64,000 nucleotides of DNA from an uncultured Gemmatimonadales bacterium (lineage in GTDB: Bacteria; Gemmatimonadota; Gemmatimonadetes; Gemmatimonadales; GWC2-71-9). This document shows positions 2,851 through 49,122 of the stretch, piece after piece. How positions within the stretch are numbered: position 1 is the first letter of the stretch; each line of letters begins with the position of its first letter. A model generated the notes under the pieces. It did no database searches. It had not been told where the DNA came from and was given only the letters and a program-made list of their open reading frames with translations. A program made the translations under genes and the position numbers. The stretch is taken from the NCBI GenBank assembly GCA_963821525.1, contig CAWGED010000005.1:1024001-1088000 (forward strand), read 5' to 3'.

Positions 2851-3234
2851 ATGCGCCGAACCCTCCTCCTCGCCGCGGCACTCCTTCTCCCGGCTCCTCT
2901 CGCCGCGCAGGGGCCCTCGATCCTTGGCACCTGGCAGGCCGACCTCAAGGATGCCAAGCGCACCGATGCGCCCCGCATCGTCATCGTGCGATCCGATTCG
3001 AGCGCCAGCTACGGCACCGAAACCGTGCGGTGGCGGATTCAGCAGAAGGGTGACAGCGTTGGCCTCGCCCTGGGCGGCGAGTGGGTTATCTACGGATTCA
3101 AGGTCAAGGGAACCAAGCTGACACTTTCCGGCGGGGACCTTCAGAAGCCCATCACGCTGACCCGGGTGGGAGACCCCACTCCGCGGCCCGACTCGATTCC
3201 CGTTCCGCCCGACCCGGACACTGAACAGCAGTAA
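2851..3234 (+). CDS. Secreted hypothetical protein
   Basis: Signal peptide MRRTLLLAAALLLPAPLAAQ followed by ILGTW. Confidence 0.8.
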   Translation: MRRTLLLAAALLLPAPLAAQGPSILGTWQADLKDAKRTDAPRIVIVRSDSSASYGTETVRWRIQQKGDSVGLALGGEWVIYGFKVKGTKLTLSGGDLQKPITLTRVGDPTPRPDSIPVPPDPDTEQQ

Positions 3235-3320
3235 GAAGTGAGAAGTAAGAAGTGAGACAGGGAATCGCTCTGGTCGCTCCTCCCGCCTCACGTCTCACGT
3301 CTTACTTCTCACGCCTTACA
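3230..3320. repeat. Inverted heptamer array (AGTRAGA)x4...(TCTYACK-like)x5 between convergent genes
   Basis: AGTAAGA AGTGAGA AGTAAGA AGTGAGA ... CCTCACG TCTCACG TCTTACT TCTCACG CCTTACA. Confidence 0.85.
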
Positions 3321-9785: not shown

Positions 9786-12060
9786 CCGGCCGGCCCTGGT
9801 TGGCCTCGACTCGCTGAACCCCGCCCAACGGCAGGCGGTCGAGCACGTCAACGGACCGCTGCTGGTCGTCGCGGGCGCCGGGTCGGGGAAGACCCGGGTG
9901 CTCACGATGCGGATCGCCCGCCTCATCGAGGAGGTCGGGGTTCCGCCGTCCCGCATTCTCGCCGTCACCTTCACCAACAAGGCGGCGGGAGAGATGAAAG
10001 AGCGGGTAGGACGACTGCTCGGTCAGGACCCGTCGGGGCTCTGGATCGGCACCTTCCATTCGCTCTGCGCCCGCCTGCTTCGTCGCGAAGCCGAGGCGCT
10101 TGGCTTCACTCGCCAATTCACCATCTACGACCAAGACGACCAGCTCAACCTGGTGAAGCGCCTGCTGGACCAGCGCGGTCATTCCTCGAAGCTCTTTCCT
10201 CCCCGTCTGATCCAGGCCATCATCTCGGCGGCGAAGAATCGGATGACCAGTCCCTCGGCACTCGCCGAGAACGCGGGATTCGACCGGGTGACCCAGGTGG
10301 CTGCGGAGATCTACGCCGCACTGGGGCCGGCACTCAAGGCGGCGAACGCGATGGACTTCGACGACTTGTTGCTTCATCCGCTCACCCTGTTCCGCGAGCG
10401 CCCGGACCGGCTGGATTACTACGCCGACCGGTTCGCGTTCGTCCTGGTAGACGAATTCCAGGATACCAACGGCGCGCAGTATCGGTTGGTCCGCCAGCTT
10501 GGTCGTCAGGGCAACGTGACGGCGGTGGGAGACGACGACCAGTCCATCTATGGCTGGCGCGGCGCCGACGTGAAGAACATGCTCGACTTCCAGCGCGACT
10601 TTCCCGGAACCCTGGTAGTCCGGCTGGAAGAGAACTACCGCTCGACCCGGCTGGTGCTCGACGCCGCCAACGCGGTGATCAAGGAAAACACCTCGCGGCT
10701 GGGGAAGACGCTGCGAACCCGTCGTCCGGGTGGTGAGTTGCTCACTCTCCTCGCCGCGGCGGATGAGCGGGACGAAGCCGAGTGGATCGTGCGCGAGTTG
10801 GCCAATCGCAGTGCCAAGGGGGATTGGGCACTGGTCGAAATGGCGATCCTCTACCGCACCAACTCCCAGTCGCGGGCGCTGGAAGAGGCCTGCCGCAGGG
10901 CGGGGGTGCCGTACCGGATCATCGGCGCGATCAGCTTCTACGATCGCCGCGAGGTGAAGGATCTGCTCGCCTATCTGCGCCTCATCACCAATCCCGCAGA
11001 CGATGAGGCCTTCCTTCGCGCCATCACCGTCCCCAAGCGCGGGATCGGGGAGAGCAGTCTCGCGATCGTAAGGGAACAGGCGGCTCGCTGGCAGCAGTCA
11101 CTGCTCGCGACGGCGCAAGCGGCAGATCGGGTGCCCGAGCTCCGGCCCAACGTCCGGGACGCACTGAGGAAATTCGCCGCGTTGGTGGACGGACTCCGCG
11201 AGCGCACCGCTTCCTGGCCCCCTGCCCAGGTCCTGGAGCAGCTGATCCAGGAACTCGACTACGAAGCGATGCTGCTGGCCGAAGGACCAGAAGGCGCCGA
11301 CCGTTGGGATAACGTCCGTGAACTGGTCGCGAGCGCGGCAGAATGGTCGGAGGTCGTAGCACCGGAAGCCGATGAAGAGGCCAGCCCGCTCGAACGCTTT
11401 CTGGCCGAGGCGGCGTTGCTCTCCGCCAATGATTCGATCTCCGGTCAGAAGGAGGGGATCACCCTCATGACACTGCATACCGCGAAGGGTCTGGAATGGC
11501 CAGTCGTAGTGCTCGCCGGCATGGAGGATGGTCTGTTCCCTCTAGCGCGCGCCGAGGAGCAAGAAGGCGGGATCGAAGAAGAGCGTAGGCTCTGTTACGT
11601 CGGGCTTACCCGGGCCAAGGACAAGTTGTATCTCACCTGGGCCCGCGCCCGGCGGCGTGGCGGCGAGCTTAAGCCGGGAAGGGGCTCGCGATTCCTCAAG
11701 GCGCTGCCTCCCGAGCTCGTTGAGGAGAAACGGACCTCTTCTCTCTGGGCTCCAAGTTGGGGCGGCTCGGCGGCTGGTCGGCTCGGCGGCACGGGTCGGG
11801 TATCCTCCACTTGGTTGGATCAGGACTACGAGCCGCCGAGCCGCCGAGCCGCCGAGCCGTCGGAGACGAACCAGGACACTCCTCGGTACGTGCGCGGGGA
11901 ACGAGTGCGCCACCGGCGGTTTGGGAGCGGAACGATCCAGGGCCTGGTAGGAACGGGAAAGGACTTGAAGGTCTCAGTGGCTTTCGATGATGCGGAAGTC
12001 GGGGTGAAACAGTTGCTCGTAGCCTACGCGGGCCTCGAACGGGATTGGGAGAGCGCATGA
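9775..12060 (+). CDS. pcrA: ATP-dependent DNA helicase PcrA/UvrD
   Basis: AGAGSGKT, VDEFQDTN, VGDDDQSIYGWRGA, TLHTAKGLE, C-terminal GERVRHRRFGSG. Confidence 0.95.
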   Translation: MKTDRPALVGLDSLNPAQRQAVEHVNGPLLVVAGAGSGKTRVLTMRIARLIEEVGVPPSRILAVTFTNKAAGEMKERVGRLLGQDPSGLWIGTFHSLCARLLRREAEALGFTRQFTIYDQDDQLNLVKRLLDQRGHSSKLFPPRLIQAIISAAKNRMTSPSALAENAGFDRVTQVAAEIYAALGPALKAANAMDFDDLLLHPLTLFRERPDRLDYYADRFAFVLVDEFQDTNGAQYRLVRQLGRQGNVTAVGDDDQSIYGWRGADVKNMLDFQRDFPGTLVVRLEENYRSTRLVLDAANAVIKENTSRLGKTLRTRRPGGELLTLLAAADERDEAEWIVRELANRSAKGDWALVEMAILYRTNSQSRALEEACRRAGVPYRIIGAISFYDRREVKDLLAYLRLITNPADDEAFLRAITVPKRGIGESSLAIVREQAARWQQSLLATAQAADRVPELRPNVRDALRKFAALVDGLRERTASWPPAQVLEQLIQELDYEAMLLAEGPEGADRWDNVRELVASAAEWSEVVAPEADEEASPLERFLAEAALLSANDSISGQKEGITLMTLHTAKGLEWPVVVLAGMEDGLFPLARAEEQEGGIEEERRLCYVGLTRAKDKLYLTWARARRRGGELKPGRGSRFLKALPPELVEEKRTSSLWAPSWGGSAAGRLGGTGRVSSTWLDQDYEPPSRRAAEPSETNQDTPRYVRGERVRHRRFGSGTIQGLVGTGKDLKVSVAFDDAEVGVKQLLVAYAGLERDWESA
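11761..11861. repeat. Inverted octamer array (GGCGGCTC)x4...(GAGCCGCC)x4 inside pcrA
   Basis: Both arms visible in the linker before the C-terminal domain. Confidence 0.85.
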
Positions 12061-15215: not shown

Positions 15216-15295
15216 AGTACCAGACCAGTACAGACGAGTAAGAAGGAATCCACTCGGTACTCGGTACTCGACTACTAGGTACTCACTATCTCACG
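15216..15295. repeat. Degenerate inverted heptamer array (GAGTACC / GGTACTC) between convergent genes
   Basis: TAGTACC..AGTAC..GAGTA then ACTCGGT ACTCGGT ACTCGACT ACTAGGT ACTCACT. Confidence 0.7.
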
Positions 15296-24801: not shown

Positions 24802-24885
24802 GATTGCTGATTGCTGATTGATGATTGCTGAATGACCAAAGGCAGCTTTTTTCAATCAGCAATCAGCAATCGTCAATCGTCAATT
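24802..24885. repeat. Inverted heptamer array (GATTGCT)x5...(AGCAATC-like)x5
   Basis: GATTGCT GATTGCT GATTGAT GATTGCT GAATGAC ... TCAATCA GCAATCA GCAATCG TCAATCG TCAAT. Confidence 0.9.
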
Positions 24886-38192: not shown

Positions 38193-38923
38193 TCAGGCGG
38201 TGAACCGGATCAGTTCGGTACGCTCGTCGCCGAGGACAGCGTAGCGGTATCCATCAAACCATGCTCCCGGATTGAGATAGTGACGCCCCGGGAGAGGCTC
38301 TGAAAGCATCGCCTTGTGAGTGTGGCCGAGGACGATCGCCCCAATACTCGAATCGCTTTCGAGGCGTGCCTCCGCCCAGCGCTGCTGCTGGCGGGCCGCG
38401 TCGGCCTGGCCGCCGGGTCCGGCTCTGAATTGCCGAGGCTGGCGCTCAGGTGATCCACGAGCCAGTGCCCTACGTCCGGATGCAGGGACCTGAATCCAGC
38501 GATGGCCAGGGGATGCCGGGTCACGCGGTGCAGCCATCGCGCGGAGGGGCGAGTCTCTGTTACGCCATCCCCGTGCAGCGCGAGAACGACGCGCCTACCT
38601 ATTCCCAAGCGGACCTCGGAGGGGCTGAACTCAATGCCGAGTTCCTTCTGCCAGAATGTCCCCCCCCACCGGTCATGGTTCCCGCCGGTCATCACCACCG
38701 GGATACGACGACGCAACTCGGCCAGACCGGCCGCCACGCGGAAGCCGGCGCGGGGTACTACCCGTTTATAGGTGAACCAGAACTCGAAAAGGTCTCCATT
38801 GATAAGGAGGCAATCGCCCAGACTCGGCGCTGCCGCCAGGAATGCCAGGAAGGCCTCCTCGGTTTCGGAGGTGCCGCGGCCCAGATGGGCATCGCTGACG
38901 ACCAGCAGGCGTTGGCCCAGCAC
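38193..38923 (-). CDS. lpxH: UDP-2,3-diacylglucosamine diphosphatase (frameshift near 38410)
   Basis: SDAHLG, GDLFEFW, GNHD, HGD, GHTH, NPGAW. Confidence 0.82.
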
Positions 38924-39063: not shown

Positions 39064-39484
39064 GTGAGTCCTGCCGACAGGGAATCGGTCATCACGGTCC
39101 GGGTCAACTACTCGGAAACCGACCAAATGGGTGTGGTGTACCACGCCCGCTACGTCGTCTGGCTGGACATGGCCCGGACCGAGCATTTGCGGGAGGCGGG
39201 CTTCAGCTACAAGGAACTGGAGGACCAGGGTAGTCAGGCTCGTTGTCACCGACCTGAGAATCCGCTACGCGGGACCGGCCCGGTACGACGATCTGGTCAG
39301 GATTCGTTGCCGGGTGCGTGAAGTAGCGAGCCGGAAGGTGGTGTTCGACTACGTCATCGAGCACGCCGAGAACGGTGTTCCGATGGCCACCGCCGAAACG
39401 GCGCTGGTTTGCCTCGATCGCGACCACCGACTCTCGCGCCTTCCGGCCAATGTGGTCGCGGCGCTTCAACCAACGGGGGAGTGA
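39064..39484 (+). CDS. Acyl-CoA thioesterase, YbgC/4HBT family (frameshift near 39230)
   Basis: VNYSETDQMGVVYHARY, PARYDD. Confidence 0.9.
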
Positions 39485-41615
39485 TGGGATTGAAGGATTG
39501 GTGGATTGAGGGATTGAGGGATGGCAGGATTGAGGGATTGAGGGATTGGAGGATTGAGGGATTGAAGGAGTGGAAGGGTCGTGGGGATAGACTCTGGGTC
39601 ATCCTCCTCGTTCAATCCCTCAATCCCTCGATCCCCCAATCCCTCCACGCCCAAACCGATCTGTTGGTCGAGGCGATCGCGCCGATCATTGCCGCCGAGG
39701 ATGCGCGAAGCTTCGATGAGTCGCTTCTCCGGCGCTCAACCCTTTCGCCCGACTCACTGGTTCGGCGCATCGCTGCTCTCTCCGCCGGCCGGCTGGGTGA
39801 TCTCCGGGCGATTCCCCTGCTGCTCCCCCTCCTGGTGGATCCGGATACCATCGTTGAATCCAACGCGGCGTTCGCTCTCGGCCTGCTCGCCGACTCTTCC
39901 GTTTCCGATGACCTGATCAAGCGGTTGGAGGATCCCGAGCTCGTGCCTCCTGCTGCGGCGCTCGAGATGGTGACCGCCTTGGCCAAAACCGGTGGGGCCG
40001 AGGCTGGGCGCTGGTTTCGTTCCCTCCTGGCCGGTTCCTCGCTGACGAGCTCGGGAAGATCGCAACGATCTTGTCCGGCGCGCCGTCACCGAGGCATGGC
40101 GCCTCGGGAAGAACGCTCCGGTTGACGGCCTGCTCGGCATGGTGGGAACCGATGACGATGACCTGCGATGGAACATCTACTATTCGCTGGGCCGCCTCCG
40201 TGCTCCTGCCGCCGCCTCCCGGATGCTCGACGCCCTGGGCGATCGCTATCCCCTCACTCGCGCAGCTGCGGCCCGAACGCTGACCAAGGCCTACGCCGAC
40301 TCCTCCCGCCTGGACGGTGAAAGCGTCGCCCGGCTGTTGCTTCGTGCAACCGGCGACGTGGACCCCGGAGTCAGGGTTCAGGCCCTGCGTTCCCTGGCAA
40401 CCTTCAAACGGGGAGACCTTGGCGCCCGGGCGACCGTGTTGCTGGATGACGCAGTCCCAGGGGTTGCCGTTGAGGCAGCCACGGTAATGCGGGACATGCC
40501 TGATCCCAAAGTGGCAACCGAGCTGGTCCGAGTCGTCTCCTCCTCCAAAGGGACCTTCGCCCGACGCCGCGCCGCGCTGGTCAGCCTGGCAGCCGTGGAC
40601 TCGGCCGCATTTCTCAAGTTCGAGAGTTCGTGGACCAACAGCTCGGACTGGCGGCAACGCTCCGCCGCCGCCGAGGCTTGGGCGAAGGTGAGGCACGGGG
40701 GCCGTCGCGAATTCCTGCAGGATGCCGATGGGCGCGTGGTCGCCGCTGCCCTCGATGCCTGGGGGACTACAGCAGAGGAGCACGACAGTGCGTTCGTGGA
40801 GACCTGCCGGGGTCTGCTCAATCATCGCGACGCCGCGGTCCGGAGCCTGGCCGCCGACGGCTTGGCGAAGGACCCGGCCGAGTCGGACATCACTGCTCTC
40901 ACCAAAGCGTTCCGCTCGGCCTCGCGAGATTCCTTTCCCGAGGCCCGTCTCTCCGATCTCGCGGCGCTGAAGGCGATTGCCAAGCTGTCAGATACGGCGG
41001 CCCATCGGGTTGATCAGGAGTTTTTGAACGCGAGCACCCCGCCCGACGATTACCTGGTGCGGCGATGGGCGGAGGAAAACTGGCCTGAGGCAGCGGCCAA
41101 ATGGGGAAGTCCTTACCCGGTGCGGACCGGCCGGACGATGGAGGACTACCGTGAGGTCACCCGGACGTATCTGGTTGGCCAAAGCCCGAACGCGGTATCC
41201 GCACGTCAAGGTTGATGTAGATCAGCTGGGGGTGATTGAGCTCGAGTTGTTCGGGCCGGAAGCGCCGCTCACGGTGAATAGCTTCTTGAAATTGGTCGAT
41301 CGCGGATACTTCAATGGCCAAAGGTTCCACCGCATGGTGCCCAACTTCGTGGTTCAAACCGGTGATCCGCGGGGCGACGGATGGGGCGGTCCGGGCGGAG
41401 CCATACGGGACGAGATCAACCCGCGCCGTTATAAGACCAGCACCGTCGGCATGGCACTCTCCGGGCCCGACACCGGTGGCAGCCAGTGGTTCATCACCTT
41501 GGGGCCGCAGCCGCATCTCGATGGCATTTACACCGTTTTCGGCCAGGTCGTGGATGGCTATCCAGTGCTCAACCGGATCACCCAAGGCGATCTGATTCGT
41601 TCAATCAAGAAATGA
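39484..41615 (+). CDS. Exported HEAT-repeat protein with C-terminal cyclophilin PPIase (frameshifts near 40060 and 41190)
   Basis: Repeats VRRIAALSAGRLG, VRVQALRSLA, VRSLAADGLA; FHRMVPNFVVQTGDPRGDGWGGPG, DTGGSQWFI, HLDGIYTVFG. Confidence 0.88.
39486..39643. repeat. Inverted octamer array (GGGATTGA)x11...(TCAATCCC)x4
   Basis: Units counted directly: left arm 39486-39573, right arm 39612-39643. Confidence 0.95.
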
Positions 41616-44445
41616 TTCGCCGGCTGCTCCTGCTTCCAGTCGTTCTCCTCGCCGCGACCGCCACGCCCGGCCGAGCGCAGTTTGCCATCCTGGGCGAGAA
41701 CAAGGTCCAGTACCGCAAGTTCAACTGGGAGGTCCTGAAGGGTCCGCACATCGACCTGTACTTCTATCCCGAGGAAGCCGAGCTCGCGCCGACTGCGCTG
41801 CAATACGCCGAGGAGAGCTACGAGGTTCTTCGCCTGAAGTTCAGCCATGAGGTGACCAGCCGCATCCCCCTCATTGTTTACGCGTCGCATAGCGATTTCG
41901 AGCAGACCAACATCCTTCCATTCACCCCGCCCGAAGGCCTGCTCGGCGTCACCGATTTTCTCAAGCGCCGGGTGACGCTCCCGTTTCGCGGCAACCTTGC
42001 CGAGTTCCGCCACACGATGCGCCACGAGCTGGTGCACGCCTTTCAGATCAGTCTGGGGATCGACCGGTACAACCGGTCACCCCGGTCATCTGGAGTCGCC
42101 ATTCCGCTCTGGTGGACCGAGGGCCTCGCCGAGTACTGGTCGGCGGGCGAGGACGCGCGGGATGAAATGATTCTGCGGGACCTGGTCTTCAGCGGCCGAC
42201 TTCCCGACATCGAACAGCTAACCTACGTCAGCGGCGGGATCGTGTACCCGCTAGGCGGACGGATTCATCGTTGGCTCGGTGAGACCTACGGCGATTGGCG
42301 GGCGGCCCAGCTCTACCACGACCTCTGGCGATACCTGACGTTCGAGGATGCCATCCAGGCGATCTACGGCAGAAGTCTGGCCCAGCTCTCCGCAGAATTT
42401 CAGCTCGTCCATGCGGAGAGCGTACTATCCGGTGAGCGAGGAGTACGTGCCGCTTACCGTGGTCGCTCGGCGGGTCGCCGAACAGGCGGTCAAGCCGGCC
42501 GAAATGCCGAACAAGGACGGCACCAATGCCCTCTACGCCTCCCCCAAGAGCGGCTTCGTCACCCTCATGCACACCCCGCTGGATACGCATGGTGGCTCAC
42601 ATTCATTGGTGGTGAGCGGACGTTCAGCCGACTTTGCGTCGCTCCATGCGTTCGATTCACGGGTTGACGCGTCGCATGAAGGCATGCTGCTCTTCTCCAG
42701 CCAATTCGAAGACCGCGACGCCCTGGTAATCTTCAACATTCCCAAGTCCGAGATCATCGGCCGGTACCAGTTTCCCGCAGATAACCTCGATTCTGTCTCC
42801 GGTCTGGGCCAAGGACAGCCAAAGCGTGATCTTCTCCGGCCTGTCCCTGAGCGGGGTGTCCGACCTCTATCGCATGAGGCTGCCAGGCGGGGAGCTGGAG
42901 ACATCTCACCGACGACAAGTACCAGGACCTCGACCCGAGTGTCAGTCCCGGACGGTCGTGAGGTCGTCTTCGCCAGCGATCGCACCGCGGGTGGGCTGGA
43001 CGGGGCGGTGAACCTCTTCATCCTCGACCTCGAAACCAGGCAGATTCGGCAGATCACCGGCGGGCGATGGGTAGACGAGACCCCCACCTGGAGCACGGAT
43101 GACCGGATCTATTTCACCTCGGACCGGGACGGCGTGCTCAACACTTTCTCGGTTGACACTGCTGGGCGAGGGTCGGAGGGAAACGTCAGTGTGGACCGGG
43201 ACGTTTGACGCCGTCCCGCTTACCGACCGGCCCGGCTTCCTGGTAAGCGGGTTCCACGACCTTTCACTCGGGATCTATCTTCTCCCGCCCGACTCATCGG
43301 CTCAGACCCAGACCTTCTCACTGTCCCCGGAGCAGGGACCGATCGCCGAGTGGACATGGCCACTGGGAGACATCGGCCTCAGCGCGAGAACCAGTCCCCA
43401 GCCCTACCAAAAACACCTCACACTCGATTTCGCCGCCGGGTCCGCAACGTTCATCCCCCGGTACGGCGCAGCGCAGGGAATCACCTTCTACGCCAGCGAC
43501 CTGCTGAGCAACCATCTCGCCTATCTCACGATCGCATCGTACCAGGGGCGGGACTTCGGTGACATTTTCTCGAACATCAATGCGTTCGGGTTGTACATCA
43601 ACCAGACGAAGCGGTTGAACTGGGGGGTTGGAGGCTTTCGACTCAAGGGGAATACCTACGCGGGGGATTTTACCGCGGTCTACCACGAAAATGCCATCGG
43701 TGGAATCGGCCTTCTCCGCTATCCGCTTACCCGCTTCACCCGACTTCAAGCGACTCTCTCGATCGAGCACTCCGACCGGATGGATTTCGTGATCCCCGTT
43801 TCCACCCCGCGGCGCGTCGGATGGATCGCTTCTCATTACCTGACCTACGTGCGGGATAATACGCTCTGGATGTCCACCGGTCCGGTGGATGGCGGTTACC
43901 TCGGCATCACAGGAGGGCTCTCCAAAGACTTCAGCAATGCCCGCTTCGACTCGTTCCTTCTCGGCGTGGATATCCGTCGCTACTTCAGGCTGGCGCGGCG
44001 CAGCGCCTATGCCGTCCGAGTGATGGGATTCTATAGCGGGGGAGACCGGCCGGACCGGATCAACATCGGCGGTACCCTTGGGCTGCGAGGATACCCCATC
44101 TACGGCTACATTGTTGGCTCGCGCGCCTACATGGTCAATCAGGAGATCCGGTTCCCGATCTTCAATTACCTCGCCTTCGGCACGGCGGGATTGGGAGAAT
44201 TGCGCTTCCCGGATATTCACGGTGCCTTCTTCCTGGATGTCGGGAAAGCGTGGTACCAGGCCGAGGAGAACCGCGCCGTCCTGGGCAGTTGGGGTGTCAG
44301 CTTCCGCTGGCCCGTCGTACCCGGCGCTGTGCTGCGCCTCGACTGGGGCCGGCGTTTCACCGACGGTGGCTTCCGGGGATATGGCTTGACCCTCGAACAG
44401 AGAAAACGCTCCTTCGTTCAGTTCTTCTTCGGATATAACTATTGA
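41612..44445 (+). CDS. Omp85 (BamA/TamA-like) barrel fused to an N-terminal Zn-peptidase and PD40/TolB-like propeller (several frameshifts)
   Basis: FAILGENKVQY, HELVH, WWTEGLAEY, PDGREVVFASDR, YFTSDRDG, GGTLGLRGY, C-terminal FFFGYNY. Confidence 0.82.
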
Positions 44446-49094: not shown

Positions 49095-49122
49095 CGTCTC
49101 CCGTCTTCCGTCTCCTGTCTCC
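49095..49122 (+). repeat. Heptamer array (CGTCTCC)x4 upstream of tRNA-Pro
   Basis: CGTCTCC CGTCTTC CGTCTCC TGTCTCC. Confidence 0.75.

Follow-up and report, generated by a model that had tools for sequence, protein, structure and literature searches.

An octamer array that probably supplies the front of a signal peptide on a HEAT-repeat cyclophilin in a Gemmatimonadales genus

Short G-rich repeats are best described as heptamers, namely the GGGAATC arrays of Xanthomonas and the GGGGA(C/T)T arrays of Nostoc (Rehm et al. 2015, PMC4692102). According to the main text of that study, these heptamers are mostly intergenic, lie near stop codons and form 70 and 75 convergent inverted pairs, respectively, with 7-11% of repeats being intragenic; that text mentions neither signal peptides nor translated repeats. 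Repeats within a leader are known from Neisseria opa, where a pentameric coding repeat, (CTCTT)n, lies in the leader peptide (PMC3960869, in its passages on this gene). Long signal peptides are known from type V secretion proteins carrying the ESPR (PF13018), in which a canonical C-terminal part is joined to an N-terminal extension of ~25 residues, giving ~50 or more residues in total, as outlined in sections of PMC8151025. In Borgs, tandem repeats within ORFs have a selected open frame, lack stop codons and are enriched in signal-peptide proteins, as the relevant parts of PMC9879509 report. Gemmatimonadota are absent from the main texts of two surveys of short bacterial repeats (PMC6749651 and PMC4060949), and in the main texts of the open-access literature we found no account of hepta- or octamer arrays serving as signal peptides, or of such arrays in Gemmatimonadota.

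The window analysed here is a stretch of 64,000 nucleotides on contig C5 of the genome (G000) of an uncultured soil Gemmatimonadales bacterium, and coordinates given without a contig refer to it. On its forward strand, a gene for a YbgC/4HBT-type acyl-CoA thioesterase (39064-39484; Pfam 4HBT/4HBT_2 on both halves, TIGR00051 match under cut-off) ends in a TGA at 39482-39484 that shares one base with an ATG at 39484-39486. This ATG opens a gene running to 41615 on the same strand which, by its domain architecture, can be assigned to the HEAT-repeat cyclophilins (peptidyl-prolyl isomerases): N-terminal HEAT repeats (HEAT_2, PF13646) and a C-terminal cyclophilin domain (Pro_isomerase, PF00160) both pass the cut-off, in full-length orthologues as well as in the pieces from the window. 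Eight same-genus sequences were compared, consisting of five genomes (G000, which contains the window, to G004) and three metagenome loci (L061-L063). In the window, the thioesterase frame is broken by one surplus base near 39233, and the cyclophilin gene is split by surplus bases near 40048 and 41181. The relatives have a single HEAT-cyclophilin of ~700 amino acids (701-709 among database proteins), and in G001, G002 and G003 its frame stays unbroken for 681-689 codons, as far as the edge of the locus. Single-base breaks near 38408, 39233, 40048 and 41181 are missing from all four other same-genus genomes, and contigs built from DNA runs lack the surplus bases at 39233 (four of four runs) and near 40050, so that, by this comparison, the breaks are to be regarded as assembly errors. 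Programmed recoding was considered as their source and rejected on the same grounds. The window genome carries ~0.5 frame changes per kb relative to G001 proteins, and broken genes in the window should therefore not be taken as real. Many split ORFs are seen between 33000 and 46000. The gene following the cyclophilin (41612-44445, forward strand) is likewise split by frame breaks; the N-terminal part of its product is peptidase-MA-like (weak Pfam match), and its C-terminal region, which has no Pfam match, resembles by eye an outer-membrane barrel with an aromatic end.

The array begins two nucleotides after the thioesterase stop. Its left, G-rich arm (39486-39573) consists of eleven degenerate octamers, encodes residues 2-30 and is followed by a spacer of 38 nt (39574-39611) that contains no gene and then by a C-rich inverted right arm of about five units (39612-39651), which can pair with the left arm and encodes QSLNPSIPQSLHA. 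Only units 1, 4, 7 and 10 of the left arm are exact copies (4/11), and GGG tracts are present in only some units. The octamer carries TGA at its end. In the frame of the ATG at 39484, this triplet would be read in units 2, 5, 8 and 11, which instead have TGG, GGC, TGG and TGG; units 1, 3, 4, 6, 7, 9 and 10 keep TGA. The original prediction had described eleven units starting at the overlapping ATG, with TGA missing from exactly those four and present in the other seven, and a translation of MGLKDWW-IEGLRDGR-IEGLRDWR-IEGLKEWK for the left arm together with the peptide of the inverted arm; re-counting and unit-by-unit reading reproduced each of these points. Treating the eleven units as independent gives a naive p = 0.003 for the stop-avoidance pattern, which is too strong, because one 24-nt unit has been amplified. 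Units 3, 6 and 9 also deviate at their first base, and the period of the array is therefore 24 nt, spelling an eight-residue repeat of the type IEGLRDWR. The four altered units thus reflect amplification of one 24-nt unit and not four separate events.

Comparison within the genus supports the view that the frame has been kept open. Across the eight sequences, TGA occupies none of 27 in-frame slots, as against 41 of 55 out-of-frame slots, with the reservations that the last slot of each sequence falls in a degenerate tail, that the first slot of G002, also a sense codon, is uncounted, and that the sequences are kin sharing one insertion, so that the slots are not independent. Seven different sense codons occupy the in-frame slot across relatives. 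The distance from the ATG to the mature Gln is 171 nt in G000, G003 and L062, 150 nt in L061 and 147 nt in G001 and G002, making the leader divisible by three in six of the eight sequences. The two exceptions are L063, whose 145-nt leader is off frame through two shortenings of C runs (the same leader is found in frame in the database protein P0134), and G004, discussed below. Because all relatives descend from one insertion, the independent evidence comes down to few events: roughly one frame choice, a 24-nt indel or two and a small number of slot changes. Among the outcomes that would speak against its proposal, the original prediction had named a mere expansion of a 24-nt unit with tolerated in-frame stops. 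The expansion is indeed seen, and the left arm of G001 is a near-pure 24-mer; in-frame stops are not tolerated.

Other arrays provide a further contrast. Because the octamer carries TGA, an unaltered run of three units closes every frame, and three consecutive TGA units are present in 6 of 7 other arrays of the same octamer in G000 and in 7 of 8 in G004, some of these controls being paralogous copies. Just upstream of predicted genes in G000, the three frames of 149 stop-bearing heptamer arrays contain 195, 195 and 182 stops; with so even a spread, the repeat as such does not avoid stops. The eight stop-bearing octamer arrays upstream of genes have 5, 10 and 9 stops per frame. Four stop-bearing arrays have an open frame and an upstream ATG or GTG, and among these only the window array lacks a later ATG or GTG before the coding core. 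In other orthologous arrays, length changes are divisible by three in only 5 of 13 comparisons. Arrays in the first 200 nt behind stop-overlapping starts are rare, with 4 cases among 390 such starts in G000. For all genome-wide figures, genes were placed with a codon model of our own, and the underlying assembly has ~0.5 frame changes per kb.

The frame also bears on the choice of start codon. The stop-overlapping ATG, the putative coupled start, is kept in 8/8 same-genus sequences and is the only ATG, GTG or TTG start common to all of them; in L061 it is the sole in-frame start, with no in-frame TTG or GTG after it. Three database gene calls (P0002, P0124 and P0136) begin instead at the last in-frame TTG, the codon of Leu27 (39562-39564, forward strand), which in the window has GGAGG nine bases 5' of it. 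Starting at an internal TTG, most simply this one, would leave an ordinary signal peptide of 30 residues, a normal length, with the upstream units untranslated and their 24-nt period a record of amplification, from which the period does stem. We regard this as unlikely: in place of the Leu27 codon, L061 has TTT and L063, P0127 and P0134 have TGG, this codon sits inside the most stable predicted stem, and an internal start explains neither the 3- and 24-nt length steps nor the avoidance of TGA upstream, exactly in the ATG frame, in all eight sequences. Contigs from four RNA libraries cover parts of 39604-40106, where DNA carry-over is possible, and none bridges the left arm.

Like opa, the window locus has a tandem unit that is not a multiple of three and that would encode part of a signal peptide, and this shared design raises the question of a contingency locus, in which slippage by 8 nt or within G runs would switch the exported foldase on and off. 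For this reading, G004 could represent the off state: its leader is 172 nt, one surplus base in the spacer puts the ATG off frame, and, given this base, no ATG, GTG or TTG lies in the mature frame. This surplus base, however, is located in the spacer and fits the error rate of the genome. Because the G004 assembly differs from G001 by 14 frame changes in 10,196 codons (0.46 per kb), the surplus base is plausibly an error; by our own arithmetic from this rate, the chance of an assembly error within 171 nt of G004 is ~8%. A change in unit number of the frameshifting opa type was not encountered either: the eight sequences show steps of 3 or 24 nt and none of 8 or 16 nt, and contigs from four DNA runs show a net 24-nt difference where the left arm is bridged, bearing in mind that contigs drop rare variants. 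Whereas the opa repeats, in the same passages, are perfect and vary phase by frameshifting, the window units are degenerate, which would lower slippage, belong to an inverted pair and change in in-frame steps. A contingency locus at this position is accordingly extremely improbable.

With translation probably starting at the overlapping ATG, the leader can be read as a signal peptide. The spacer codes for the n-region's basic end and for a short h-region of 7-8 residues, LWVILLV (residues 37-43) in the window, with a hydropathy maximum of 2.5-2.6 over eight residues in 6/6 in-frame orthologues. The right arm would encode the c-region, ending in L-H-A with Ala at -1, and cleavage is predicted before Gln57. 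The n-region has a net charge of only +1 in the window and of +3 to +4 in its relatives. When orthologues lacking the repeat are aligned, their signal peptides end at the position of the A-Q junction, and from this alignment we infer export of the HEAT-cyclophilin through the leader. Taken together, the leader is likely a signal peptide of 49 to 56 residues in which the left arm (residues 2-30) would form an extension of the n-region. This recalls the ESPR, which is also a long signal peptide with an N-terminal extension; as described in the sections cited above, the ESPR is a conserved sequence on autotransporters, whereas the window extension is repeat-derived, drifting and placed on a cyclophilin. 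Neither PF13018 nor any other Pfam family matched the 57-residue leader at E values up to 1. Borgs offer a similar likeness, as DNA tandem repeats have there been absorbed into protein with the frame kept open. In the parts of that report at hand, Borg units are divisible by three, whereas the 8-nt unit here would become compatible with the frame only through its 24-nt super-unit, and would form the signal peptide itself.

What is selected in the left arm can be judged from substitutions. Synonymous to non-synonymous counts there are 1:8 (G000/G003) and 0:7 (G000/L062), somewhat inflated by small compensated shifts near the end of the arm, compared with 20:3 and 20:4 for the same pairs over the initial 130 codons of the mature part; intermediate counts are seen in the right arm (3:1, 3:2, 0:2, 3:2 and 3:2). 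Of 13 possible synonymous single-base variants in the left arm, 2 distinct ones occur, and of 54 possible non-synonymous ones, 14; this is about neutral, and selection at the amino-acid level was rejected for this arm. These counts suggest that the left-arm peptide drifts about neutrally and that only its open frame is kept. The proposal that a repeat hairpin has been absorbed as the N-terminus and signal peptide of the foldase, with its frame held open, stands as the most likely reading; selection on the left-arm peptide itself found no support.

Structure-enforced translational coupling is an established mechanism, and the original prediction had raised the possibility that the hairpin gates translation of the foldase. 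The right arm would then pair with sliding registers of the left arm and hide the start, so that the foldase would be made only through coupling to translation of the thioesterase. The arms do give a strong predicted stem (z = -4.2, 0/200 shuffles), which is expected, because any inverted repeat gives one. Most stem positions are conserved, and the ATG is predicted to be paired with the end of the right arm in five of the eight sequences (p 0.74-1.0); in the other three this pairing is absent. Consensus folding of seven rows, in which L061 and L062 are present without the end of the right arm and whose closeness limits power, found compensatory changes in 0 of 34 pairs and an unfavourable covariation term (+1.14). 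Opening the 30 nt around the ATG is predicted to cost 13.1 kcal/mol (10.4-22.0 in relatives), below the median of 14.1 kcal/mol for 70 of the 390 other stop-overlapping starts, 60% of which are at least as high. In addition, coupling at this junction is older than the repeat, and transcription reaches the right arm only ~130 nt past the ATG, which would leave room for initiation to take place beforehand. The hairpin as a regulator was rejected on these grounds, gating by it is unsupported in the modelling, and a translated array with a regulatory hairpin appears very unlikely.

The history of the junction can be followed outside the genus. The thioesterase adjoins the foldase gene in 51/51 outgroup rows (50 distinct loci); 17 of the 51 have a start overlapping the thioesterase stop (-1 or -4), and the distance from stop to mature protein is 43-160 nt, compared with 146-170 nt in the window genus. 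Among the 120 homologues listed, most have, by eye, an ordinary, short signal peptide at the start, with Ala-Gln or the like at its end. Adjacency, overlapping starts and short signal peptides in outgroups together indicate that coupling and export are ancestral and that the repeat is a genus-level addition. In the closest repeat-free sisters, P0005 and P0149 (67% identity, compared as proteins), the c-region is shorter and has identical first and last residues (LLLQ...LHSQ). This is a hint that a c-region was already present, inside which the right arm expanded or whose place it took, and the sister form is possibly the ancestral state. Three other lineages carry different repeats at the thioesterase-foldase junction (L009, L071 and L112); to judge by these repeats, which appear independent of one another, the junction takes up repeats repeatedly. 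In L009, an octamer run lies in frame behind the overlapping ATG, in the n-region. In L071, a repeat hairpin straddles the ATG, its left arm preceding the ATG and its right arm spelling SLCSLCLCG; LCLCG motifs like this one are found in about a dozen homologues. In L112, heptamers lie before and within the leader.

On the sequence evidence as a whole, it is probable that the array is translated from the stop-overlapping ATG as a signal peptide, that its repeat-coded front is filler, tolerated provided that it has neither stops nor frameshifts, and that the hairpin is no regulator. At the ancestral junction, a short, plain signal peptide came directly after the thioesterase gene. An array would then have arisen in the ancestor of the genus just behind the stop codon, the usual site of such arrays, and would have fallen inside a reading frame because the next ATG overlaps that stop. 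Every third unit is altered, in the ATG frame, in all relatives. One stop-free 24-nt unit would have been fixed, with growth or shrinkage by whole 24-mers. Ribosomes finishing the thioesterase would restart at the overlapping ATG, the spacer would give the hydrophobic core and the right arm the cleavage region. Because the leader would be removed on Sec export, its sequence would matter little, and the hairpin would be a by-product of the origin of the repeat. The value of such a locus is that of a natural reporter: since a stop is built into the octamer, its frame-locked loss would reveal translation of a repeat otherwise taken for junk, and would also fix a start codon that database gene callers put in three different spots. 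It would further illustrate how non-triplet repeats can enter genes through a 24-nt super-unit, in a part of the protein that is cut off anyway. No new function or regulatory system is revealed, and the repeat class has already been published from Xanthomonas and Nostoc.

Membership in this class can be examined across the genome. G000 contains 732 hepta- and octamer arrays (616 heptamer, 116 octamer) from ~57 coexisting unit families; one contig, C5, has 180 arrays, compared with 0 in one codon-block shuffle. Only 35 of the 732 lie inside predicted coding cores, most being outside genes, unlike the window array, which would be coding. Mirror-image arrays make up 106 of 211 neighbouring pairs, with the G-rich arm first in 78, the C-rich arm first in 13 and arms equal in 15. 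By its sequence and setting, the window array can be placed in the dispersed class of the Xanthomonas/Nostoc type: as in the main text on those genera, the arrays are G-rich, mostly intergenic and behind stops, and form inverted pairs, and the window unit is of the shared GGGA-T type, one base longer than the heptamers. It differs from the arrays described there in that ~57 families are found in one genome and in that the window octamer lies wholly in frame and would spell a signal peptide. Five further hepta- or octamer arrays lie in the window (3230-3309, 11760-11859, 15252-15290, 24802-24884 and 49095-49122), several of them forming inverted pairs. Unlike most others, the octamer array at 11829-11859 does not differ in length between G003 and G004, and the array at 49095 directly precedes, by eye, a tRNA-like sequence.

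Repeat arms also bracket genes. Among genes matching PF05635, 7 of 13 have hepta- or octamer arrays on both sides, compared with 13 of 1517 small control genes, and the units are mostly mirror images. One of these array-bracketed four-helix-bundle genes is flanked by the window's own octamer, and the G004 homologue of the octamer-flanked gene matches TIGR02436. The window octamer is seen as inverted arms round a TIGR02436/PF05635 gene at C9:23-627 and C4:415160-415727 of G000 and at L038 of G004. The arms at the window locus are like those of these four-helix-bundle (23S rRNA intervening-sequence protein) genes, but no PF05635 or TIGR02436 gene lies between them, only the 38-nt spacer. A broader reading would make repeat-armed hairpins, possibly remnants of four-helix-bundle cassettes without their gene, a recurrent raw material for signal peptides in Gemmatimonadota: the junction would have taken up different arrays at least four times, both arms would be the export signal in the window genus, and the hairpin or rare slippage would tune the exported foldase. 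In this full form the idea is speculative and unlikely. A genome-wide search for octamer-derived signal peptides, which the original prediction had proposed, found no enrichment: among 400 repeat arms, those ending at an Ala-Gln cleavage site numbered 2 in frame and 4 and 4 out of frame, in a survey insensitive enough to miss the window locus itself. An unusually long, near-perfect octamer array of ~29 units is present at C19:556391-556628 of G000. Also in G000, candidate exported proteins with a repeat-spelled leader or first mature residues can be listed by their putative starts: C19:630235 (forward), C19:668568 (reverse), C19:781987 (reverse), C5:707973 (forward), C5:799648 (forward) and C7:48155 (forward).
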